Positions 2,222 to 35,080 of a DNA stretch of 43,130 nt are shown here, piece by piece. The DNA is taken from NCBI GenBank assembly GCA_003345595.1, contig PRDI01000007.1:1-43130 (forward strand), in the 5' to 3' direction. How positions within the stretch are numbered: the stretch's first letter is position 1; each line of letters starts with the position of its first letter. The stretch comes from Candidatus Thorarchaeota archaeon (GTDB lineage Archaea > Asgardarchaeota > Thorarchaeia > Thorarchaeales > Thorarchaeaceae). The notes beneath the pieces are model-generated. The model ran no database searches. It had not been told where the DNA came from and was given only the letters and a program-made list of their open reading frames with translations. The translations under genes and the position numbers were made by a program.

Positions 2222-2359
2222 GCCATACATCGGACTGTAGAACCGTTGCTTTGTTCGCAGGAGCCATCGAATGACACAGTGTTTTATATGTCCAGAGCTC
2301 CCCGATGGCCAGATGAGGCAATGCTCAGTTAGAGCTGACAGGACTAACGAAGAGAGTGC

Positions 2360-3610
2360 ATGGCTTTGGTCAGGACGCCAATCGAAGTCTACAGAGGGCT
2401 GGTCCGGACGCGTCTTGGTGACGAGTTGCCAGCACACCTCAGGGCCGTCACTGATCGATTCTCAGAGGGAACATTCGCTGGTCAGAGCACATCGAGCCAC
2501 TTAACAAAGCTTCTGACACTGTTCTCTCGGTTCATGGCATACCTCGACTCTAGAGAGGTTGCCAACTTGTCCGATCTCACTCGTGCAGTAGACTTGCTTG
2601 ACCACTTTGCATCGACTTCTAAGTGGTGGTCAATCACGAGAAAGGCGCCCGGTCTGGTGCTTAGACCGCCGTCACATGATCCACACGAGTTCATGGAGTC
2701 TCTTGCTGCCGTTCAGCTTGGCAACGAAACACTCAGTCGTATTGCAGGCTCCACCGAGAAATTGTCGCAGTATCTGGAAGAGCATGGTATAGCTGAGTCA
2801 CGTACTAAGTCCGATTTGTGTGAGAGTTTCGCTTCAGTCTGGGCCCTCATGAGCGCAATCGTTTCGAAGAGTCAGGGACGCACTATAACCTCGGAAAACG
2901 ACTTCGAAGTGGGATTCGACGTGATTCGGGTGTTGTTGTTCTACAGCTTCGCCGATGACTTCAAGGCGTTGACTGCTGTTCGAACTGTGGGCACAAACCC
3001 CAAAGTGCATCGAGCTGCAGGCGTGACCCTAGCACCGGGTTTTGAGCGAAAGCTGGACTCTTCGGCGATGGCCCGACTTGAACGACTACATGGCGAGAGT
3101 CTGTCGAAGCTCGCATCAATGACATCGGGAGCCGGCCGTTCCATTCTTACAAACTCCCTTCGTTTTCTTGCTCAGCTGCTGGCTGTGGAGCGGGGTTTCA
3201 CGAGAGTTGACGAACAAAGCTATGAATCCACGATAGCGGCAGCGTTGGTTGCGATTAGGAATGTCGGCATTCCTCCTGACCTCTTTCAGGAGGAGTCTGC
3301 AGTAGTCAGCCTCTTCAAGAGCCTCAAACCTTCGGAGGATATCGGAGAGCGAATCAGTCTCCTAATGAGGCGATTCGAAGGGCTAATTGCTGACTCCGCA
3401 GGCAGTCGTGAGTTTCTGCTGCAGCACTCTCGGCTGGTACCTCAACTGGTTTCACTGCTATTGCTTCTCGCTTCTGAAACGAAACCAAAGCCTGAGGGCG
3501 GGCTCCAAGATCCCGACCTAAAGAGAGGCCTGATTCTGCTTGAGCAGCTTCTCAACGACTTGGGCTCTGTGTCTTCTTCGTTTCCTCAATCAGAATCCTC
3601 GCGTCGATGA
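2360..3610 (+). CDS. Hypothetical helical protein with four ~100-aa internal repeats (AAA-lid/histone-fold-like)
   Basis: 416-aa ORF filling the uppS-acdB gap. Repeats are visible by eye and there is no P-loop. Confidence 0.8.
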   Translation: MALVRTPIEVYRGLVRTRLGDELPAHLRAVTDRFSEGTFAGQSTSSHLTKLLTLFSRFMAYLDSREVANLSDLTRAVDLLDHFASTSKWWSITRKAPGLVLRPPSHDPHEFMESLAAVQLGNETLSRIAGSTEKLSQYLEEHGIAESRTKSDLCESFASVWALMSAIVSKSQGRTITSENDFEVGFDVIRVLLFYSFADDFKALTAVRTVGTNPKVHRAAGVTLAPGFERKLDSSAMARLERLHGESLSKLASMTSGAGRSILTNSLRFLAQLLAVERGFTRVDEQSYESTIAAALVAIRNVGIPPDLFQEESAVVSLFKSLKPSEDIGERISLLMRRFEGLIADSAGSREFLLQHSRLVPQLVSLLLLLASETKPKPEGGLQDPDLKRGLILLEQLLNDLGSVSSSFPQSESSRR

Positions 3611-4304
3611 CAAGTGCACCTTTGCCTTTCTCATAGATGAAAGTGGGGTTGCAGTCGAGTTCGACTATCTCTGGGTTTTCCTTCACCATCCTCGAAACAG
3701 ATAGTATCACATTAACCAGTGCGTCCACGTCTCGAGGAGGTTGGCCGCGGACTCCGTCAAGGATCTTCGCTGCCTTTATCTCACTGACCATTTCACGAGC
3801 ATCGAACTCTGACATTGGTATGAGTCTGAAGGTGACATCCTTCAGTACTTCCACGAATATCCCTCCGAGCCCAAACATCAGTGCATGACCAAACTGTGGG
3901 TCTCGCGTCACTCCAATGATGACTTCGGTGCCCGTGTCTGCGAAATCAGAGATGAGCACACCGCGGCTAAGATCAACTTTGGTTCCTTTGTCCTTGCCAT
4001 ACTTCACTGCATTATCCATGATTTCCTGAAAGGCCGTCTTGACTTCGCCTTCGTCCTTGAGGTTAATCTTAACACCTCCAGCATCCGACTTATGGAGGAT
4101 ATCTTTAGACAGCACCTTGAGAACCACAGGAAATCCAATCTTCTTAGCTTTTGAGGCCGCATCTTCTGCTGTCGTGGCAGTGTCATAAGCAGGAATCGGA
4201 ATGCCATAAGCCTTCATGATATCCTTCGCTTCATTCTCTAAGATGTATGTACGCCCCTCCGCCAGAGCGGTTTCAAACACCTTCTTGGCAGTTTTCATTT
4301 GCAT
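3552..4304 (-). CDS. acdB: ADP-forming acetyl/acyl-CoA synthetase beta subunit (ATP-grasp)
   Basis: GFPVVLKV, ILHKSDAGGVK, DPQFGHALMFGLGGIFVEVLKDVTFR, ELDCNP. Start inferred at ATG 4304 (ORF open to 4337). Confidence 0.93.
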   Translation of the reverse strand: MQMKTAKKVFETALAEGRTYILENEAKDIMKAYGIPIPAYDTATTAEDAASKAKKIGFPVVLKVLSKDILHKSDAGGVKINLKDEGEVKTAFQEIMDNAVKYGKDKGTKVDLSRGVLISDFADTGTEVIIGVTRDPQFGHALMFGLGGIFVEVLKDVTFRLIPMSEFDAREMVSEIKAAKILDGVRGQPPRDVDALVNVILSVSRMVKENPEIVELDCNPTFIYEKGKGALVIDARILIEETKKTQSPSR

Positions 4305-4545
4305 ATCAGACCTCGTCAGTTCCAATCGGTGGCTCATTGCCCGTTTTTATTCTTTCGCAGTCCTGGAAGTCAGGCACGTAGAAGCTGCCTAGACGCCAGA
4401 CAATCTTGAGCATGGCTAAGTGGGACTTAAATATCTCCCGAGTTGACCTCTCTCGATTGTTGGCTTCAGACAGCATGATTTCAAGGATTGTGATGGCATT
4501 ACCGTTCCCGGAGAACAAGGGCTCCAGTATCCAATCTCAGACATC

Positions 4546-5979
4546 TCACTGTGATCGATTGAACTCTCCGCCATATCTGATTCTTCCGTACTCCGCGAGT
4601 GCGCTTGCGGCGACTGCCGCCTTCTCACCTGTTGCATAAGTGGGTGTACCCATGAGTTCCATTATTTCTCCCGCTTTCGTAGTGAATGCACCCCCCATTG
4701 AAACAACAACGAAGGGCTTTCCAGACTGGCGCTGGTAGTTCGATATCACATTCGTGACATCCATTCCCAATGAAGGGGTCTGCAGCAGCATGCCTACAAC
4801 AAAAATGTCATACTCGCTGCTCTTGATTGCCTCATCTAACACCGCATCATAGCGGCCAGCGTCAGTATCACCAACGACATCGATCGGGTTGTGCCATGAA
4901 CAGTAGGACGGCAGTCGTGACTTCAACTTCTCCTCCAGTTCCGGGGACGGACTTGGTACCGCCAAGCCCATCGCCTCGAGGGCGTCTGTGGTCATGACTC
5001 CCAGGCCCCCGCCATTGGTGACCATTAGCACCCTGTCCCCTCTTGCAGGCGGCTGCATGGCAAGGGCCTTAGCCATGTCAAACATGTGCTCGAAGTTGTC
5101 TGCCCTAATCACTCCTGACTGCCTGTAGGCTGCATCGGCAATCTGGTCTAGACCTGCAAGGGCACCCGTGTGAGAGCTGGCGGCAGCGCGCGCCCGCTTT
5201 CCTCTTCCTGACTTCACAACCAGCACTGGTTTCCGCAGCACGGTGGTCTTTGCAGTTTCGAAGAAAGTACGTCCCTTGTCTTTATCATAACCTTCTATGT
5301 AGAAGCAGATAACTTGTGTCGACGGATCCTCCCCTAGGTAGCAGAGCAGATCGTCGTCGTCCACATCACACTTGTTTCCCAGACTGATGATCTTGCTGAT
5401 CCCTATCCCGAGTTCAGATGTCCAGTCAGATATAGCCGCAGCAAATGCTCCGGACTGGGAGACCAGAGAGATGTTTGCCACGTTGCTAGGTTTCGGTCGT
5501 CCGCACCTGTACTCCGGCAAGAAGAACGTGTCCACATGAGTCTGGCTGTCTATCACGCCAACACAGTTAGGACCGATTATGCGTATACCGTGTCTTCTCG
5601 CTATCGCCACAATCTCGTCCTCGATCTCTGCTCCTGCAGGACCTGTTTCCGAGAATCCCCCAGAAATCACAATCGCTGCCTTCGTACCCTTTGCCCCGAT
5701 ATCCTCGAATACTCTTGGCGTGATTCTTGCCGGGACTGCGACGACCACTAGGTCCACCGGGTGCGGAATCTCCTGCAGAGTAGGAAAGCAGGGCACGCCG
5801 AGAACGCTAGAATACTTTGGGTTGACTGCGTAAATCTTGCCTGTGTACTGTGGCTTTATGAAATTCTGAATGATGGCTTGGCCAACGCTATTGGGAGTCG
5901 CTGAGGCCCCGTAGACGGCAACGCTTTTCGCATTGAAGAAGTGGTCAATGCCGGTCGTATCTACTCCCGACAATATCAT
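4546..5979 (-). CDS. acdA: ADP-forming acetyl/acyl-CoA synthetase alpha subunit
   Basis: SVAVYGAS, IGPNCVG, SQSGA, SLGNKCD, AASSHTGALAG (phospho-His), TNGGGLG, NPIDVVGD. Start inferred (ORF open to 6027). Confidence 0.93.
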   Translation of the reverse strand: MILSGVDTTGIDHFFNAKSVAVYGASATPNSVGQAIIQNFIKPQYTGKIYAVNPKYSSVLGVPCFPTLQEIPHPVDLVVVAVPARITPRVFEDIGAKGTKAAIVISGGFSETGPAGAEIEDEIVAIARRHGIRIIGPNCVGVIDSQTHVDTFFLPEYRCGRPKPSNVANISLVSQSGAFAAAISDWTSELGIGISKIISLGNKCDVDDDDLLCYLGEDPSTQVICFYIEGYDKDKGRTFFETAKTTVLRKPVLVVKSGRGKRARAAASSHTGALAGLDQIADAAYRQSGVIRADNFEHMFDMAKALAMQPPARGDRVLMVTNGGGLGVMTTDALEAMGLAVPSPSPELEEKLKSRLPSYCSWHNPIDVVGDTDAGRYDAVLDEAIKSSEYDIFVVGMLLQTPSLGMDVTNVISNYQRQSGKPFVVVSMGGAFTTKAGEIMELMGTPTYATGEKAAVAASALAEYGRIRYGGEFNRSQ

Positions 5980-6291: not shown

Positions 6292-7314
6292 ATGACCTTC
6301 TCAATTCTCAGGGACGGCTTTCACATACTGAATGCATCGGTAGAAGAGGCGGGCCAAGCCGCGACAAAGGGTTTTGAGAGAAGAATCCAGCATTTCGGCA
6401 GCAGTCTGATGTGCTATAGCCCGACGTCATATCCGTACAGAATCAGAGACCACAGACAGACTACCTCTACGAGTTTTATATCGCTTAGCATCACAGGCAG
6501 AACCTGTTCACTGAACTGCGAGCACTGCAATGGACGTCTTCTCAGAGGAATGGAACCAGTGCTTACCCCGGAGGGCCTTGTCAAAAGGTGCAAGGAAGTC
6601 AAGGCGCAAGGTGCTGAGGGCGTACTCATCAGCGGTGGGTCTGACAGCGAGGGTCATGTGCCACTTGCTCATTATGCCGAAGAGATCTCAACCATCAAGA
6701 AGGATATTGGACTGAAGGTTGTTGTTCATACGGGTCTTGTGGATGACGACACTGCAAGGATTCTGGCCAAGGCGAAGGTAGACGCAGCGATGCTCGATGT
6801 AATAGGTGACGAGCGTGTGGCCCGAGATGTGTACCACATTGAGAACGGCCCCGCCAAGATGGACAAGTCACTTGAAGTCCTAGCAAGGAATGGTGTTCCT
6901 ACCGTGCCCCATGTCCTTGTTGGACTCAACTACGGACAACTCGGCGGTGAGCTTGAGGCATTGCACTTGATCTCAAGGAGGCCTACTGCTGCTGTGGTCA
7001 TCATCATTCTCAGCCCTATCAAGAAAACAGCCATGGAGGGTGTCGAACCGCCGACACCTGATGTTGTCGGCCGTTTTATGACCATAGCTCGGCTCGGACT
7101 GGAGAGGACTCCTCTCTTGCTGGGCTGCGCTCGGCCCATTGGAAAACACAAAATCGAATCCGATAGGTTCGCTGTCAAGAGTGGCATGAACGGAATCGCA
7201 TACATCAGTCAAGAAGGTGTCGACCTTGCGAGAAGCATGGGCCTGAGGCCCGTGTTCAGGGATGCTTGTTGCTCACTTGCACCTCACGACCTGATACAGG
7301 CAGCCCTCTCATGA
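6292..7314 (+). CDS. lipS1: Radical SAM protein, archaeal lipoyl synthase subunit LipS1-like
   Basis: SITGRTCSLNCEHC (CX3CX2C), LISGG, LGCARP and C-terminal ACC, matching the GC(M/A)R and CC motifs described for LipS1. Start uncertain (ORF open from 6178). Confidence 0.78.
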   Translation: MTFSILRDGFHILNASVEEAGQAATKGFERRIQHFGSSLMCYSPTSYPYRIRDHRQTTSTSFISLSITGRTCSLNCEHCNGRLLRGMEPVLTPEGLVKRCKEVKAQGAEGVLISGGSDSEGHVPLAHYAEEISTIKKDIGLKVVVHTGLVDDDTARILAKAKVDAAMLDVIGDERVARDVYHIENGPAKMDKSLEVLARNGVPTVPHVLVGLNYGQLGGELEALHLISRRPTAAVVIIILSPIKKTAMEGVEPPTPDVVGRFMTIARLGLERTPLLLGCARPIGKHKIESDRFAVKSGMNGIAYISQEGVDLARSMGLRPVFRDACCSLAPHDLIQAALS

Positions 7315-7834
7315 TTCCACCTGCTACTTCGTAACCAGAATCAAGAGACCACATACCCACTGCAGTGGGAAAGAACGAGAGCCAGACCAAAGAGCAAAGC
7401 AGTACGACACATTTCAGGGTGAAACGGTACCTGAAGAAGAAATGTGCTCGTGAGTTCTCTCTTATATCGGCCCAATCATGACCTCGTTCGTCAAATGCTG
7501 CTGCGAGCAGCAATACCAACACTAGGGCCATCCAGTTGACCCAGTTGATGACATTGGGAACTCCCCTGATAGTCAGCACGACCCCAATAAGAAGAAAACC
7601 AATTACGAACTGTGGCTTGTTGACCTTGCCTGTGAGAAGCACGCCAATGACTATCGCGGTGAGCAAGGCCAAGTCCCATTCTGAGAGGCTCATAATCACG
7701 CCGAACAGTACTCCAGAGAGGGCCAAAGGAAACCAAGCGAGGCTGGGCCTGTCAAGCTCATCAAGCAAATCATCACCCATCTTCAGAGTGAGACCTGCCG
7801 ACCAGTACATGAGAAAGTAGACAATCCACCACAC
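7256..7834 (-). CDS. Polytopic membrane protein of unknown function
   Basis: 192 aa with about 6 hydrophobic segments and acidic motifs KMGDDLLDE and FDERGHD. Confidence 0.75.
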   Translation of the reverse strand: MWWIVYFLMYWSAGLTLKMGDDLLDELDRPSLAWFPLALSGVLFGVIMSLSEWDLALLTAIVIGVLLTGKVNKPQFVIGFLLIGVVLTIRGVPNVINWVNWMALVLVLLLAAAFDERGHDWADIRENSRAHFFFRYRFTLKCVVLLCSLVWLSFFPTAVGMWSLDSGYEVAGGIMRGLPVSGREVQVSNKHP

Positions 7835-8390: not shown

Positions 8391-9041
8391 CTACTCGATG
8401 TCAGCACCCGGTTTCGATCTCTGACCCGTTCTTGGAGTCTTTCCACGGGCGCGTGCTTCCTCTGCGAGACGATCCAGCTCGTCAGCCTTCTCCATGAGCA
8501 CATCACGTACCGACCAGCCTACGCTGTCATCCTTCAATGCGACTCTGAAGACTGCAAACCACTGCCGTCCATCCAACATGGGTCCCTGCCTCAGGAGCCC
8601 ATCCGTAAGTGCTCTCGCCTGTCCTATCTTGTCGGTCGATGCACTGATGTTATCGTAGATGGCTCTCTCAATCTTCGCAACCCCTGCAACACGTGATGCC
8701 GTCTGGACTGTACTCAGGAAGGAGAGTATGACGACAAACAGCAGGTAGGGCAGGTCTTGCACGAAATAGTCGATATTTGCCAAGACAATAGCCACTACAA
8801 GGATCAGCAGGACTAGAATGGTTTCGAGGAAGAACCCGTCGATGACAGCATTACGTGCGGCCGACATCTGCCACCCGCAGTATCTCGAAAGTGGCGAAGA
8901 TGGTCTGTGATAATGAGTGATATCATTGATGTAACGATCGCGGCCCCGCTTAGCTAGGATAAGCCATATGGTCTGAACGATAAGACCTAACATGATGATG
9001 ATAATGCCGAGATCAGTAACTGTCACCAGCGGCATCTGCAT
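8391..9041 (-). CDS. Hypothetical membrane protein (about 3 TM segments plus a helical soluble C-terminus)
   Basis: 216-aa ORF with hydrophobic segments near residues 11-30, 70-88 and 98-112. No recognised family. Confidence 0.7.
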   Translation of the reverse strand: MQMPLVTVTDLGIIIIMLGLIVQTIWLILAKRGRDRYINDITHYHRPSSPLSRYCGWQMSAARNAVIDGFFLETILVLLILVVAIVLANIDYFVQDLPYLLFVVILSFLSTVQTASRVAGVAKIERAIYDNISASTDKIGQARALTDGLLRQGPMLDGRQWFAVFRVALKDDSVGWSVRDVLMEKADELDRLAEEARARGKTPRTGQRSKPGADIE

Positions 9042-10356: not shown

Positions 10357-11031
10357 TCAATGGGGCGAAGGCAGTGACGGAGTCAGTGTGACTTCGTATG
10401 AATAGAAGGTATAGCCGTAATATTGGCATGCCCAAACCGTGGCGTTGGTCGGGAGCCCTGTGCTCATGTCCACGGTGGCATACCATCCCGAGCCTGCATC
10501 ATATAGATACATTCTATGGCCAATCATGAACGATGCGTTCAGAGATGAGAAATAGGTATCACAAATCGGATCTGGTTCCAACATGTCAGGATAGAGGGAG
10601 TCTATGAAGGGCCAGTTTCCCACAGGCAGAATGGACTGAGAAATGACATTATTCAGGAATGAGTAGTCCGCTGAAACAACCTCTGTCCCGTTCCCATACT
10701 CAATGGGCCCCGTGATAGAAGTCTTCACGTAGCTGAGTATGCCTTCCGCGAATGTTTCCCCACTCGGAAAGGAGGGAATTTCAGGAAGGCCATCGATTCG
10801 TATTGTCACGTAGGTATTGTTCAGTTCAACATGGTACGGTGGAGAGAAGGACCCATTGAACGGCCAGTACTCACTGAAGCCCATGACTCTTACGGCATAG
10901 GTGATCTCATCGCCTAGTTCGACCTCCCAGTGCAGACCTGCGCTTTGGTTGTAGAACACGAGGACGCCTCCAGTAACTCCTAGGACACTGACCATGATAA
11001 CAGCAGCGCCTAAGGTTCTTCGTTGCACCAC
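10357..11031 (-). CDS. Hypothetical exported or N-terminally anchored protein
   Basis: Basic N-terminus, one hydrophobic helix, then a Tyr/Ser/Thr-rich region with several N-x-S/T sequons. Confidence 0.72.
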   Translation of the reverse strand: MVQRRTLGAAVIMVSVLGVTGGVLVFYNQSAGLHWEVELGDEITYAVRVMGFSEYWPFNGSFSPPYHVELNNTYVTIRIDGLPEIPSFPSGETFAEGILSYVKTSITGPIEYGNGTEVVSADYSFLNNVISQSILPVGNWPFIDSLYPDMLEPDPICDTYFSSLNASFMIGHRMYLYDAGSGWYATVDMSTGLPTNATVWACQYYGYTFYSYEVTLTPSLPSPH

Positions 11032-16943: not shown

Positions 16944-18749
16944 ATGAGCCATCAAACTGGGAGAATCGAAAACATAGCTGGGCCGGTTGTCAAGTGCAGC
17001 GGAATTCGTGGTGTGCGCATGTATGAGGTTGTGCGAGTAGGAAAGGAAAAGCTGATTGGCGAGGTAATCGAGGTGGGAGCGAATGAGTTTACGGCACAAG
17101 TGTACGAGGAAACCTCCGGCCTTTGCCCAGGCGAGCCTGTCATTTCCACCGGAGATGCTCTCTCCGTGGAACTGGGACCTGGCTTGCTCGGCTCAATCTA
17201 CGATGGAATCCAACGACCGCTACCAGAGCTGCAGTCTCTTTCAGGTGACTTCATAACCCGAGGCTTGACTGTTGAGGGAGTAAACAAGGAGAAGAAATGG
17301 CCATTCACTCCTTTGGTGAAGGTTGGCGACCACGTCAAACCCGGGGACTTCGTCGGGGAGGTTCCTGAAACCGGCATAATAGTGTCGAAGATAATGACAC
17401 CGCTTGGCGTTGAGGGCGACATAGTGAGTATCGTGCCTGCGGGCCAACATACAGTTCTTGAGCCCGTCTGCAGGGTGAAAGATAGTCGAGGGGATGTACA
17501 CGACATTATCATGATGCAGAAAACGCCTGTACGAGTAGGTCGTCCCTTCAAAGAACGTGTCGGAATGAACACACCGCTGGTTACTGGACAGAGAGTAATC
17601 GACACTTTCATGCCACTAGCGAAGGGTGGTACAGGTGCTATTCCTGGCGGGTTTGGCACGGGAAAGACAGTCACGCTCCACCAGTTCGCGAAGTGGGCCG
17701 ATGCTCAAGTGATAGTATACGTGGGTTGCGGCGAACGTGGGAATGAGATGACTGAGGCTCTTGAAGAATGGCCGAAGCTCAAGGATCCGAAGTCGGGCCG
17801 GCCGCTGATGGAGCGAACCGTACTAATCGCTAATACGTCAAACATGCCTGTGGCAGCACGAGAGGCCTCGATATATGTAGCAGCCACACTAGCGGAATAC
17901 TTCAGAGACCAAGGCTACGATGTCGCTCTCATGGCTGACTCGACCTCTCGCTGGGCCGAAGCCCTGCGCGAAATCTCAGGTCGACTCGGTCAGTTACCTT
18001 CTGAGGAGGGCTATCCGGCCTACTTAGGTTCACGCTTGGCACAGTTCTATGAGAGGGGCGGCCGAGTCAAGACTCTCTGTTCTGGTGAACGGCTCGGCTC
18101 GGTGACAATGTGTGGGGCGGTTTCACCACCAGGTGGTGACTTCTCAGAGCCTGTGACACAGGCCACATTGCGCATAGTGAAGGTCTTCTGGGCGCTGGAC
18201 AAGGACCTCGCGGCAAGGAGGTTCTTCCCTGCCATCAACACATTGACTAGCTACTCGCTATACCACGCGAACCTTGAGAAGTGGCACAGGGAGAACTTGG
18301 GGCCAGACTGGCCTCAGCTTGTGGCCGAGGCAATGGCGCTCTTGCAGAAAGATCAGGAATTGAGAGAGATAGTACAGCTTGTCGGTCCGGACGCACTGCC
18401 CGAGTCGGAGCGTGCGGTTCTCGAGGCCGCAAGGATGATCAAGGAGGACTTTCTCACACAGAGCGCAGTGCACGAGATTGACACGTACTGCCCATTCGGC
18501 AAGACTTATCGCATGTTGAGAATCATCATCATCTTCTCGCGAAAGATGGCCGAAGCAGTCAAGATGGGTGCGCACGTTCGGAGAATACTTGAGTTCAGCA
18601 TACTCGACAACATCGCCAGAATGAAGATTGCACCTTGGGACACGTACAGCAAGACGATGGATGCCATTGAGAGCAAGATGGAGCGAGAGTTTGATGCACT
18701 ATTCAAGGAGATGACGGCATCTAGTGTGCCTTTGCCGGCAGCACCTTGA
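16944..18749 (+). CDS. atpA: A/V-type ATP synthase subunit A
   Basis: [62 protein letters not shown]. Confidence 0.98.
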   Translation: MSHQTGRIENIAGPVVKCSGIRGVRMYEVVRVGKEKLIGEVIEVGANEFTAQVYEETSGLCPGEPVISTGDALSVELGPGLLGSIYDGIQRPLPELQSLSGDFITRGLTVEGVNKEKKWPFTPLVKVGDHVKPGDFVGEVPETGIIVSKIMTPLGVEGDIVSIVPAGQHTVLEPVCRVKDSRGDVHDIIMMQKTPVRVGRPFKERVGMNTPLVTGQRVIDTFMPLAKGGTGAIPGGFGTGKTVTLHQFAKWADAQVIVYVGCGERGNEMTEALEEWPKLKDPKSGRPLMERTVLIANTSNMPVAAREASIYVAATLAEYFRDQGYDVALMADSTSRWAEALREISGRLGQLPSEEGYPAYLGSRLAQFYERGGRVKTLCSGERLGSVTMCGAVSPPGGDFSEPVTQATLRIVKVFWALDKDLAARRFFPAINTLTSYSLYHANLEKWHRENLGPDWPQLVAEAMALLQKDQELREIVQLVGPDALPESERAVLEAARMIKEDFLTQSAVHEIDTYCPFGKTYRMLRIIIIFSRKMAEAVKMGAHVRRILEFSILDNIARMKIAPWDTYSKTMDAIESKMEREFDALFKEMTASSVPLPAAP

Positions 18750-18828
18750 CAAGTCCTACGGTAAGATGCAACCATACTACTGTCTGAGTGGCCTTTATCA
18801 GATGATGTGAATGGCAGACAGATGAGAC

Positions 18829-19419
18829 ATGACGCACCTAGATGAGCTACTGAGTCTGCATCGAGAGATAGAGCAATGTAGACGGTGCCCCCTCTGGAAG
18901 ACTCGCAAGAATGCGGTTCCGGGTGAGGGCTCAGCAGTCGCCGATGTGATGTTCGTCGGCGAGGCTCCGGGCGCTAGAGAAGACGAGTACGGCAGGCCGT
19001 TTGTAGGGCGTTCCGGGGATCTTCTCACAAAGCTACTCGCAGAGATAGGTCTCTCAAGGAATGATGTCTTCATCACATCCATCCTGAAATCCCATCCACC
19101 GAGGAATCGTCCTCCAATCAAGTTGGAGATCGATGCCTGTTTCCCCTATCTTCTGAAGCAGTTCGAATTAATCCAGCCCTCAGTGATAGTCCTTCTTGGC
19201 AGCGTGGCTGTGTCAGCAGTCATGGGTCCGTGGAAGATGTCCGACTGTCACGGCAGATTCTACGAGGGGTCCGACAGGGTCTTTTTCATGACCTATCATC
19301 CTGCAGCGGCACTCAGATTTCCTGAGGTCAGAGAAGTGATGAGGACGGACTTCGCAATCCTGAAGACGCACCTAGACCAAGTGGCAGTTATATCCACCGG
19401 CACAGACTCTGAGTCGTGA
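18829..19419 (+). CDS. udg: Family-4 uracil-DNA glycosylase
   Basis: CRRCPL, VGEAPG, GRPFVGRSG, PPRNRPP, TYHPAAALR. Confidence 0.93.
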   Translation: MTHLDELLSLHREIEQCRRCPLWKTRKNAVPGEGSAVADVMFVGEAPGAREDEYGRPFVGRSGDLLTKLLAEIGLSRNDVFITSILKSHPPRNRPPIKLEIDACFPYLLKQFELIQPSVIVLLGSVAVSAVMGPWKMSDCHGRFYEGSDRVFFMTYHPAAALRFPEVREVMRTDFAILKTHLDQVAVISTGTDSES

Positions 19420-19940
19420 AACTCCTAGAAGTGTTCCTAACGTCGGTTTCCATGCTTCAGACACCGCTTCAATTTCAGGTTTTTCCATCATGGTGGTTTT
19501 CCTTACTCGAAACAGTTCTGAATGCGGCATATGCCATTACCATCAGGGGATACTTACTCATTGTTTTGATTGGGCTCATGCTCTATATGACTGGCCTGTG
19601 TGATGAACTTGGCAAGATACTTGTTGTCGGGGGCGTGGGGATCTACTTTGTTGGCCCTTATCTTGTTAGCCTCTTGGCGACTGTAGCCGGCATTGAACCC
19701 ATAACACTTGAGAGCGCGACGAGCGCGTGGCTGAAAGTCTTCGCAATGAGTGACAGCGAGCTGATTGCACTGATTGTGACCCTGGCCGAGGTCCTTGCAG
19801 CCATCTGCTGTGTGGCTGGAGCAATAATGTATCTTGTTCCATCATCAAACGAACTAAAGTCTAGGGGGCAGTCATTGATTGTCAGAGCGCTGATTCTTGC
19901 CCCGGTCTTGGTGTTCTTTCAAGTGTCCCCTTGGATATAG
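19416..19940 (+). CDS. Membrane protein with two tandem helical hairpins (possibly VirB2/TrbC pilin-like)
   Basis: Start overlaps the udg stop (GTGA). Two similar units: LIVLIGLMLYMTG..ELGKILVVG and ICCVAGAIMYLVP..SRGQSLIVRA. Confidence 0.72.
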   Translation: MKLLEVFLTSVSMLQTPLQFQVFPSWWFSLLETVLNAAYAITIRGYLLIVLIGLMLYMTGLCDELGKILVVGGVGIYFVGPYLVSLLATVAGIEPITLESATSAWLKVFAMSDSELIALIVTLAEVLAAICCVAGAIMYLVPSSNELKSRGQSLIVRALILAPVLVFFQVSPWI

Positions 19941-20025
19941 TCTATTCATCTCGACATAACTCTTAAATGAATGCCACGACTCCGGCGGGACGTGGATTGA
20001 CCGTGCACCTTGGGTGAACACACCG

Positions 20026-21426
20026 ATGGCAGACAGGTCCTCAATCGACTATCGAACGGTTTCTGACGTGAGTGGTCCCCTGCTTATCGTACAGAACACA
20101 CACAATGTGGGCTATAACGAGGTCGCGAGGATTCGATCACCCTCAGGGGAGTTGTTGACAGGGACTGTGCTTGAAACAGGTCACGGCAAGGCTATCATCC
20201 AAGTCTTTGAGGGCACCAGCGGGTTGGACACCGATCTGACATCAGTACGTTTCGTGGGCGAAACACTGAAGCTGCCAGTTTCCACTGAGATTCTTGGACG
20301 AGTTTTGGATGGGTCGGGAAACCCACTGGACAAGGGTCCTCCTCTGACAGCAGAAGATCACTGGGACATAAACGGCTTGCCAATCAACCCTTACGCACGT
20401 CAGTACCCACGGCAACCGATTCAGACAGGTCTTTCAGTAATCGATGGGCTCAACACACTTGTCCGCGGTCAGAAGCTGCCGATCTTCTCGGGCTCTGGAC
20501 TGCCCCACAACAGGATTGCTGCACAGATAGTCAGGCAAGCAAAGATTCCTGGTGAGGAGGGTCAGTTTGCCATAGTGTTTGCTGCAATGGGGATTACTGC
20601 AACTGAGGCCCAGTATTTCATGAACTCCTTCGAGGAAACAGGCGCGCTTGAACACACGACTATGTTCTTGAACTTGGCTAATGATCCTGCAATCGAACGC
20701 ATTATTACACCCAGGGCAGCATTGACAGCGGCCGAGTATCTAGCATATCAAGCGGACATGCACATTCTAGTAATACTGACTGACATGACAAACTACGCAG
20801 AGGCTCTGCGTGAGATAAGCGCTGCAAGGTCTGAGGTTCCAGGCCGCCGCGGATACCCGGGGTACCTATACACAGATCTCAGCCTGATTTATGAGCGCGC
20901 GGGACGCATCCACGGCAGAAAGGGAACAATAACACAGATGCCTATACTGTCAATGCCACAGGACGACATGACACATCCTATCCCTGACCTGTCCGGGTAC
21001 ATCACCGAAGGCCAACTCCCACTGAGTAGAGGGTTGCACAGGCGCGGAATCTACCCGCCGATAGACCCCGGCCCATCACTGAGTCGTCTGATGAAGGAGG
21101 GTATCGGTGAGGGGATGACTCGTTTCGACCATAAAGAGATACAGGCACAGCTCTACTACTGTTATTCCGAAGGCAGGGACTTGAGGGACCTCGTTGCCGT
21201 CGTAGGGTCAGAAGCCCTGACAGATCGTGACCAGAAATATCTGAAGTTCGCTGACAGGTTCGAACAGGAATTCATTAACCAGGGAGAGTCTGAAGACCGG
21301 TCGTTCGAGCAGACTTTGGACCTAGGATGGACCCTACTCAGCGAGTTTCCTGAGAGGGAACTCAAGAGATGCGACCCGCAAACTATCTCTTGGGCCAAGG
21401 AGAAAGGTGTCTACAAGCCTGCATAA
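20026..21426 (+). CDS. atpB: A/V-type ATP synthase subunit B
   Basis: [60 protein letters not shown]. Confidence 0.98.
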
Positions 21427-33565: not shown

Positions 33566-33766
33566 GTGCGTGCCACGTCCTTCCGACAAAGATAGGTGCG
33601 GTTTTCTTCTCTCGCTGCCATGCTTCGACTGCTTCTGCAGCAACAGGATTTGACAAAAGATTAATTACAGCGTCAATTGTGGAAACGGACCCAGTGCTTT
33701 CTAGGCAGCGGCGCACGATGGCGGTCTTCTGGAATGCTCACTGCTATCTCATACAAGATCTACGAG

Positions 33767-35080
33767 ATGCGCAAGTATCTAGTCCTCAGTCTGATTATTT
33801 CTATAGTTGCGATACCAATCGCCAACTCCTTCGTCGTTGAGCGAGATCGCAACCGGAATGAGATGTATGGTGAGGCATTCTGGATTTACGGTTTCGAAAT
33901 CTACAACATGACTGACTCTCAGCTGGCCGATGCTCTCCCTCCTGAGTGGGGTTTCAATGCTAGTCTGTATGCTCTGCCTCCCTATCTAGGCAACATCACA
34001 TACGAGTACCCAGTCTTCGGTCTCATATTCTTCGCAATCGCAGTATGGCTATACCCGGGTGTGGGTGGGCTGCAGCCTCTGTGGTTGAACTTCCTTCTTG
34101 TTCTGGTGTTCAACCTCAATCTGGTTCTAGTAGCCATCTTGTTGCGCGACAAGATCTACAAGGTGTCTTGGGCACGTTTCCTGTTCGGCGCTTACTTCGT
34201 ATATGGTCTCATAATGTCTGCTGGCGGCGGCAAGAACGAACCTATCGCCGACTGTCTCATGCTGATGGCACTCATTCTCAGGAAGGAAGGGCAGATGGGA
34301 AAGGCCATGTTCACTCTCGGCTTGGCTGTGCAGTCGAAGATATACCCTGCAGTGATCTTTCCGATTCTGTTCTTGGAAGCCCCCGTTTCTTCTGTCTGGT
34401 TCCTGATTTCCACGCTCTTGACAGTGATACCTTTTGCTTTTCTGGGGGCGAATTTCGACTCACTGATCTCGCACTTCCTTAACACCACGAGCTATTCGAG
34501 CTACATAGTCAACCCAATGTACCCGGGGCTCTTTCTGGCAACTCCTGACGTAGCTACCAACCCGGTCACATACTACATGTGGCCTCCTGCACTGGTTCCA
34601 CTGATCATCTACGTTACATTCATGACCTATACAATACCGCTGTACCTTCCATCTAGGCAGCAGTTCCAAGGCAAGTCAGTAGTCCAGAAGCTACTGGTTC
34701 TGAAGCCCTTGTATGTCTATCTCCTCCCTGCCATACTCTTTGTGTATCGCTGGGTCATGCCATGGTACCTGTTTTGGCTTGGGATTACTGTCTTCCTATT
34801 TGACGAGGACAAACAGGCCATAGGGTATCTAAAGCAGCTCACCGTGGTCGGCGTGGTCTATACATTTGGCTTGTTGTGCAATGGGCCCTATCTCCTGAGC
34901 GGCCCACTTCCCGACTTCTTGGCAAATTTCACGTCTGGCTGGTACACAATAATAGGGCTCTCTCTCATGGTTGGGCTTACTGCTTTTTCATACTTCGCGT
35001 GGAAGTGGACCTTTGAGCGCAGGGAACGGAAAGCGCGTATCATTCGGGAGGCTGAGGCGCGCGGTGAGCTTGTGATTTGA
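33767..35080 (+). CDS. Polytopic GT-C-fold glycosyltransferase (GT87/PIG-M-like)
   Basis: About 10 TM segments, early loop YEYPVFG, KNE, LAVQSKIYPAVIFP, PWYLFW. Start uncertain (ORF open from 33677). Confidence 0.68.
   Translation: MRKYLVLSLIISIVAIPIANSFVVERDRNRNEMYGEAFWIYGFEIYNMTDSQLADALPPEWGFNASLYALPPYLGNITYEYPVFGLIFFAIAVWLYPGVGGLQPLWLNFLLVLVFNLNLVLVAILLRDKIYKVSWARFLFGAYFVYGLIMSAGGGKNEPIADCLMLMALILRKEGQMGKAMFTLGLAVQSKIYPAVIFPILFLEAPVSSVWFLISTLLTVIPFAFLGANFDSLISHFLNTTSYSSYIVNPMYPGLFLATPDVATNPVTYYMWPPALVPLIIYVTFMTYTIPLYLPSRQQFQGKSVVQKLLVLKPLYVYLLPAILFVYRWVMPWYLFWLGITVFLFDEDKQAIGYLKQLTVVGVVYTFGLLCNGPYLLSGPLPDFLANFTSGWYTIIGLSLMVGLTAFSYFAWKWTFERRERKARIIREAEARGELVI

Follow-up and report, generated by a model that had tools for sequence, protein, structure and literature searches.

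A conserved single-copy Asgard protein of four tandem repeats with predicted likeness to the lid domains of AAA+ ATPases

What kind of protein consists of four similar helical units, resembles the lid domains of AAA+ ATPases and carries no ATPase domain? This question is raised by an open reading frame (ORF) on contig PRDI01000007.1 (assembly GCA_003345595.1) of a Candidatus Thorarchaeota archaeon. The window analysed is the stretch from position 1 to 43,130 of this contig, a housekeeping region of ~52% GC from a Thorarchaeota-type Asgard archaeon. The ORF lies at 2360-3610 on the plus strand and, with its stop codon included, encodes a protein of 416 aa. A helix-strand-helix motif links AAA+ lids with histones, which, according to the accepted proposal, are derived from a lid through shortening of the hinge and a domain swap. 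In this study, we found that the gene is real and conserved and that its product is a four-fold repeat, the units of which are predicted to fold as lid-like bundles.

A single-copy gene family of Asgard archaea

The preliminary description of the protein, made from the sequence alone, called it an orphan. As far as annotation is concerned this stands: no match to Pfam (E ≤ 10) or NCBIfam was found for the 416-aa protein or for 34 of its relatives, and a search of the PDB with a profile of the whole family gave one chance match and nothing else. As far as relatives are concerned it does not. A word-index search returned 136 homologues with 46-91% identity, most of them 398 aa long and 46-62% identical and one at 91%; the named ones were labelled Thorarchaeota, 'Promethearchaeota' or, in one case, Lokiarchaeota, with no other label. 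An exhaustive phmmer search over 1.84 billion representatives gave only 18 matches, all within the same tight group, and a second word-index search with a mixed alignment was saturated by Thorarchaeota-type sequences and added no new members. Iterated profile searching of 30 sampled Asgard families, which converged, recovered collinear relatives of ~395-447 aa with 11-18% identity in nine further families, including metagenome-assembled genomes labelled Heimdallarchaeota. The survey across Asgard genomes proposed in the preliminary description thus placed the family in 99 of 301 genomes and in 10 of the 30 families sampled. No member was found in 68 genomes of family f9, 28 of f5, 19 of f12 and 11 of f14 (the sampled families are referred to by number).

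Within the family to which the window genome belongs, the gene is present as one copy per genome in 73 of 76 genomes, and the three genomes without it are 62-77% complete. These results show that the gene is real and conserved, and we take it to be vertically inherited and single-copy in Asgard archaea. Within the searches run, the family is Asgard-only.

Four repeated units and their predicted fold

Four units with a period of about 100-105 aa had been proposed from the sequence, starting at aa 7, 108, 214 and 315 and ending in the segments aa 54-80, 163-189, 269-295 and 366-375 with 381-394. All of these starts and ends were found at those residues, and the offsets of the profile alignments gave a period of 101-106 aa. 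Smith-Waterman comparison of the single sequence with itself placed the repeat barely above chance (z 3.0 for units 1 and 2, not significant for most other pairs). Profiles of unit 1 (aa 4-95), unit 2 (104-200), unit 3 (212-304) and unit 4 (305-405), built from an Asgard-wide alignment (A8) of 31 sequences, were compared by hhalign, which gave 97.3% (E 2.7e-11) for units 1 and 2, 94% (E 1.4e-7) for units 1 and 4, 93% (E 3.8e-7) for units 2 and 4, 85% (E 6.8e-6) for units 2 and 3, 56% (E 1.1e-4) for units 1 and 3, and 22% (E 1e-3) for units 3 and 4. All six pairs aligned in register over 73-89 columns, and five of the six reached E ~1e-4 or better. Scores of real unit pairs were 21-57 versus 8-13 for reversed-profile controls; column-shuffled controls on an earlier 38-sequence profile scored 10 ± 2. 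The signal rose with the diversity of the alignment, units 1 and 2 going from 58% with Thorarchaeota-type sequences only to 97% (E 2e-10) when Heimdall-type sequences were added. The four-fold repeat is therefore significant at profile level. Units 1 and 2 are the closest pair and unit 3 is the most diverged from the other three; this pattern is at odds with a simple doubling of the type (AB) to (AB)(AB).

An AlphaFold2 (AF2) model of the full protein, made on the family alignment, had a predicted local distance difference test score (pLDDT) of 84.6 and a predicted template modelling score (pTM) of 0.80; for the C-terminal half folded alone the values were 86.3 and 0.87. In both models, every unit runs from a short helix through a strand, a helix, the hinge, a long helix and a second strand to a final helix (Table 1). 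Apart from one short strand per helix-strand-helix motif the model is all-alpha, with no alpha/beta domain, and the prediction of the hinge is confident for units 1, 2 and 4 and less so for unit 3. Alva et al. (2007; PMC1847821) described the AAA+ C-domain, or lid, as two helix-strand-helix motifs joined by a hinge, and set histones apart by their unbroken alpha2, which makes a domain-swapped dimer obligatory. In predicted secondary structure, each of the four units matches the C-domain topology. A spacing of 55-65 aa between the two strand motifs had earlier been read as favouring lids, and we take the predicted strand-to-strand spacing of 49-60 aa inside the units as agreeing with this.

Exhaustive structure alignment against the PDB gave AAA+ or histone-fold proteins in ~40 of the top 50 matches for the full model and in ~35 of the top 50 for the C-terminal half, at low Z (3-6). 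The AAA+ matches were MCM2-8, ORC/Cdc6, RuvBL, Lon, Rpt1/3/6, BchI, MuB, TnsC, FtsH, ClpA/B, dynein, ComM and RFC; the histone-fold matches were HMk, the SOS histone domain, Melbournevirus doublets, H2A-H2B, TAFs/SAGA and 1WWI. Lid-only structures were almost wholly covered within single units. The Rpt3 lid superposed on unit 1 (aa 17-82) with 57 of its 57 residues at a root-mean-square deviation (rmsd) of 2.4 Å, and on unit 4 with 56 of 57 at 2.5 Å; unit 1 was also aligned by the MuB and Ycf2 lids. Unit 4 (residues 115-201 of the C-terminal half) took the lids of MCM (68-70 residues, 2.6-2.8 Å), Cdc6 (64 residues, 2.2 Å), Rpt3, dynein and ComM, with rmsd values of 2.2-2.8 Å over 56-70 residues as a whole, and the Lon alpha-subdomain (61 residues, 2.6 Å) and the MCM8/9 lid fell on unit 3 (residues 10-110 of the same half). 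Histone doublets spanned two neighbouring units over 80-90 residues, with equal or lower Z. A shape search of the Atlas listed AAA_lid_2/Mg-chelatase and MCM clusters among its matches. The feature search of the ESM Atlas was uninformative for the whole protein (0.81-0.85) and gave no usable match for unit 2; the Atlas's own model of the protein has a pLDDT of 0.37, which makes its structural rows meaningless.

The hinge and the superpositions within single units favour lids over histones. A stand-alone lid quadruplet, which the preliminary description had preferred to a histone quadruplet, is thus supported at the level of the fold by the predicted models, and the assignment of the units to lid-like bundles is fairly secure as far as such models go.

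Table 1. Features of the gene and its product, with positions in the window
Feature	Position	Strand	Basis and remarks
Putative own promoter: TATA-like TTTATATG (2283-2290) after a conserved ACACAG block	2273-2290	+	TTTATATG lies 70-77 nt 5′ of the ATG
Coding sequence, 416-aa protein	2360-3610	+	ORF list and translation; intact collinear homologues in the Asgard genomes searched
Unit 1, aa 7-84: helix 7-16, strand 18-19, helix 23-34, hinge 35-43, helix 44-62, strand 67-68, helix 70-84	2378-2611	+	AF2 DSSP, pLDDT 89-96
Linker between units 1 and 2, aa 85-107	2612-2680	+	Invariant S85, W89, W90, R94, P97 and R102 in the Thorarchaeota-type family; predicted disordered
Unit 2, aa 108-195: helix 108-117, strand 119, helix 122-141, hinge 142-146, helix 147-171, strand 176, helix 179-195	2681-2944	+	AF2 DSSP
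Connecting helix between the two halves, aa 198-211	2951-2992	+	AF2 DSSP
Unit 3, aa 214-301: helix 214-220, strand 222-223, helices 226-233 and 236-255, hinge 256-261 (lower confidence), helix 262-277, strand 282-283, helix 285-301	2999-3262	+	AF2 DSSP
Unit 4, aa 312-405: helix 312-321, strand 324, helix 328-347, hinge 348-358, helix 359-373, strand 382, helix 384-405	3293-3574	+	AF2 DSSP
C-terminal tail, aa 406-416, low confidence, not conserved	3575-3607	+	pLDDT 32-52; most homologues stop near aa 400

A proposed lid-like scaffold and other readings

The profiles of the units were also compared with alignments collected from the genome searches, namely Asgard MCM lids, AAA_lid_2, AAA_lid_3, histones and, as a negative control, ribosomal S15. 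This comparison, too, had been suggested at the outset, and it gave matches that are borderline at best. The strongest was between unit 2 and Asgard histones (79%, E 1.7e-5), over 37 columns that cover the C-terminal motif (alpha2-L2-alpha3) only; unit 1 reached 17-28% against the same histones. Unit 1 matched AAA_lid_2 with E 9e-4 to 2e-3 and the MCM lid with E 3e-3, collinear across 66 columns covering both motifs. In the same set-up, the genuine pair MCM_lid and AAA_lid_2 gave E 1e-3. The values for unit 2 with histones and unit 1 with AAA_lid_2 are comparable to this benchmark, and we count them in favour of the lid-like reading. Pairwise hhalign of the units with the Pfam lid families PF17855, PF17863 and PF17862 gave E 9e-4 to 0.4, and HMMER searches of the PDB with the unit profiles gave non-significant matches to the MCM3 lid (unit 2), the RuvBL1 lid, H2B and Dpb4. 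Reversed-profile controls for the lid and histone comparisons scored 7-15. These sequence and profile results support a shared helix-strand-helix motif and by themselves do not choose lids over histones; as evidence of common descent with AAA+ lids, the sequences are borderline.

The same data bear on the idea that the protein is a highly derived histone-fold quadruplet, in which units 1 and 2 and units 3 and 4 would form two intramolecular handshake pseudodimers organising DNA. The match of unit 2 to histones, with that of unit 1 at up to 28%, speaks for it, as do weak Foldseek rows to single-chain H2A-H2B and viral doublets, and the Heimdall-type members are basic, with an isoelectric point (pI) of up to 9.3 and a strongly positive unit 2. 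However, a hinge of 5-11 residues splits the equivalent of alpha2 in each unit, and unit 1 can be aligned to histones only via one 14-residue gap, which falls exactly at this hinge. The units are ~100 aa long versus ~65-70 aa for histone folds, complete lid domains fit inside single units, and no member matches a histone model of Pfam (PF00808 or PF00125). The Thorarchaeota-type members have an overall pI that is neutral to acidic (5.3-8.9), and the net charge of the units flips between lineages, unit 2 being acidic in the Thorarchaeota type. Such variable pI and unit charge, which are bulk values per protein or unit rather than surface patches, argue against a conserved histone-like DNA-wrapping surface. 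The histone quadruplets known from archaea are, moreover, 262 aa long and found in Poseidoniales only (PMC13260811). Because its units are hinged and no histone model matches it, the protein is not a canonical histone, and we regard a derived histone-fold quadruplet as unlikely.

Nor is the protein an AAA+ ATPase, since it has no P-loop core. The Walker A motif, reported absent in the preliminary description, is indeed missing from the 416-aa protein, as is an hhhhD[DE] pattern, and no P-loop family of Pfam matches (E ≤ 10). A degenerate AAA+ ATPase was considered and rejected: the four units are all helical and mutually homologous, and no trace of an alpha/beta core is left. The positions conserved Asgard-wide are almost all hydrophobic, and no polar constellation suggestive of catalysis was found among them.

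A further candidate is a generic all-alpha repeat, a solenoid or an array of helical bundles that would have converged with lids and histones through common helix-loop-helix packing. Alva et al. (2007; PMC1847821) noted that similar helical hairpins also occur without homology, the similarity of the units to lids in sequence is below threshold, and the language-model neighbours are ARM/HEAT-type eukaryotic proteins, although at the uninformative scores given above. Against this, two independently folded models both drew 35-40 of their top 50 matches from AAA+ and histone-fold proteins, the period of 101-106 aa lies outside the range of 30-50 aa, and each motif has a single strand bridge like those of C-domains. 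All profile comparisons, moreover, place the shared loop-helix motif of one partner on that of the other, with reversed controls at 7-13. No repeat family, such as HEAT, ARM or TPR, recurred among the 34 members. A convergent repeat of this kind seems to us an improbable explanation.

Taken together, the protein is probably a non-enzymatic scaffold or adaptor of four lid-like bundles that arose by repeated duplication of one module. On this reading, a module of ~100 aa would have been duplicated repeatedly, each copy being a hinged helix-strand-helix pair with the four-helix architecture of the C-domain (lid), whose ancestral motif would be common to the histone fold. The four bundles would pack as one defined body, and the surfaces formed by their strand bridges and loops, together with a flexible linker that is conserved, may be offered to partner macromolecules. 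The linker is that between units 1 and 2, which has a pLDDT below 50 at aa 96-105 and yet is among the most conserved stretches in the Thorarchaeota-type family; in Heimdall-type relatives it is not conserved except for one Pro. We consider it a candidate interaction motif. The argument for a scaffold or adaptor role runs mostly by exclusion and is weak.

Several observations weigh against this lid-like scaffold. Foldseek returned nothing at E ≤ 1e-3 from the PDB (full model and C-terminal half) or from BFVD, so that of the AlphaFold and Foldseek check proposed earlier, the models gave the lid topology and the search gave no significant match. The scores of the units against lid profiles (18-22) are only modestly above those of the ribosomal S15 control (up to 16.8), none of the 34 members has a match to a lid or histone model of Pfam even at E ≤ 10, and the similarity of the sequence profiles to lids and to histones is, as said, borderline. 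The structures are predictions, and the pairing of strands within rather than between units is read from alignment ranges. Finally, the conserved neighbours of the gene (uppS, NYN, DUF7121, acdB and the GPN-loop GTPase) form no coherent pathway. It is conceivable, at long odds, that a free-standing array of AAA+ C-domains has persisted in Asgard archaea without an ATPase, either as a living 'closed, hinged' pre-histone state or as an ATP-independent 'lid array' regulator that docks on AAA+ machines (MCM, Cdc48, MoxR) or nucleic acids.

With known AAA+ lids (MCM_lid PF17855 and AAA_lid_2 PF17863; Rpt, Lon and Cdc6) the units share, besides the superpositions at low Z, one short strand per motif and a unit end made of a hydrophobic helix, a (G)R-x-x-V/T-x-x-x-D loop and a further helix; the best preserved example of this loop-helix motif, GR..T.E.DFE, sits in unit 2. 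The Asgard protein differs in having four tandem copies, no P-loop alpha/beta domain and no Pfam lid match, and its units are ~88-94 aa long versus 45-87 aa for lids. A 426-aa ORF in genome G007, with matches to MCM_lid and AAA_lid_2, was considered as a bridging relative and rejected as an ordinary MoxR-type ATPase; on contig 76 of that genome (L105, 2206-5020) it is followed by a 516-aa VWA protein, an ordinary MoxR-VWA pair. With the histone fold and double histone folds (HMk 1F1E, the SOS histone domain and viral doublets) the protein shares the helix-strand-helix motif, the best profile match of all and a weak alignment across unit pairs, whereas histones have a continuous alpha2 and form a handshake dimer, the Asgard units are hinged into a closed bundle, and the family has neither a conserved basic surface nor a histone match in Pfam. 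The acidic histone quadruplets of Poseidoniales (cluster 5) likewise have four helix-strand-helix-based units in one archaeal polypeptide and an acidic to neutral pI; however, they are recognisable histones restricted to that group (PMC13260811), whereas the Asgard family is ~400 aa long, escapes histone models and, within the searches made, is confined to Asgard archaea. Lid-type bundles outside ATPases are known from the N-terminal domain of DNA polymerase epsilon subunit B (2V6Z; PMC2528186) and from PCP_red/asr4154 (2KRU, 2L09), both of which were among the structure matches, but these are single domains in or as small proteins and not a four-fold tandem array.

The locus and the place of the family

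Across Asgard families, uppS, optionally with an NYN gene and DUF7121, lies upstream of the gene, and downstream, in convergent orientation, lie acdB and/or a GPN-loop GTPase with a CinA-like gene. The position of uppS raises the question whether the protein, whatever its fold, is an accessory or regulatory subunit of the adjacent cis-prenyltransferase (UppS) in polyprenyl or dolichyl phosphate synthesis. In four Asgard families, uppS closely precedes the gene in the same direction: the two are immediate neighbours in f1 and f2, are separated only by a small NYN gene in f6 (gaps of 8 nt and 79 nt) and lie near each other in f21. In the Thorarchaeota type, however, a conserved promoter-like element separates uppS from the gene. 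This element, ACACAG-N2-3-TTTATATG, is kept in three loci (the window, L001 at ~5917-5934 and L002 at ~5953-5970), 48-84 nt before the start codon; it resembles an archaeal promoter with B recognition element (BRE) and TATA box, and is a putative promoter on the strength of this resemblance. In addition, f3, f4, f18, f27, f28 and f30 retain the gene without uppS within the fetched flanks, and the other recurrent neighbours (acdB and the GPN-loop GTPase) are convergent and functionally unrelated. A partnership with UppS is thus the least likely of the readings considered here, and we give it very little credence.

In the Thorarchaeota type, the gene ends a conserved cluster of a Sec23/24-like gene, two Roadblock genes, an Arf-like small GTPase, a third Roadblock and uppS (L001, 1053-5891; L002, 1197-5915). 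The window starts inside this cluster (2-2221), with the Arf-like gene at 410-973, a Roadblock at 984-1364 and uppS at 1454-2221. In other Asgard families, the genes directly upstream of the orthologue repeatedly include a divergent DUF7121 and one for a small NYN-domain protein (genes in these positions: L106, 2546-3409; L117, 2403-3323; L014, 4701-5594; L116, 2822-3277; L106, 2020-2487; L014, 4143-4643); a 297-aa ORF at the equivalent upstream position in L014 has no Pfam match. Downstream in the window, an acdB-like gene on the minus strand (3552-4337; ATP-grasp_5) overlaps the gene convergently over 59 nt (3552-3610), which comprise the end of unit 4, the tail and the stop codon. The overlap is just 11-17 nt in two other Thorarchaeota-type loci, because the orthologue there lacks a 16-aa tail.

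Elsewhere in the window, the genes for subunits A (16944-18749) and B (20014-21426) of the A-type ATP synthase are split by a uracil-DNA glycosylase gene (18829-19419) and a 174-aa ORF (19416-19940), which is unusual for atpA-atpB (16944-21426). Four more ORFs of 192-467 aa have no Pfam match: 7256-7834 (-), 8391-9041 (-), 10357-11031 (-) and 33677-35080 (+). Syntenic unannotated counterparts of the first two flank the ribosomal L35Ae gene in L001 and L002.

In summary, an unannotated gene family that is near-universal and single-copy in Thorarchaeia occurs also in several other Asgard lineages. Neither this Asgard family nor any protein made solely of tandem lids was found to be described in the literature, in line with the preliminary description, which knew of no family like it; what is new is the architecture and the family, built on a known motif. 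The retention of this family implies a core cellular role. A conserved protein that would consist of tandem hinged lid-like modules only, in the archaea closest to eukaryotes, represents a new architecture for the helix-strand-helix motif, and may serve as a tractable object for testing the lid-to-histone scenario.
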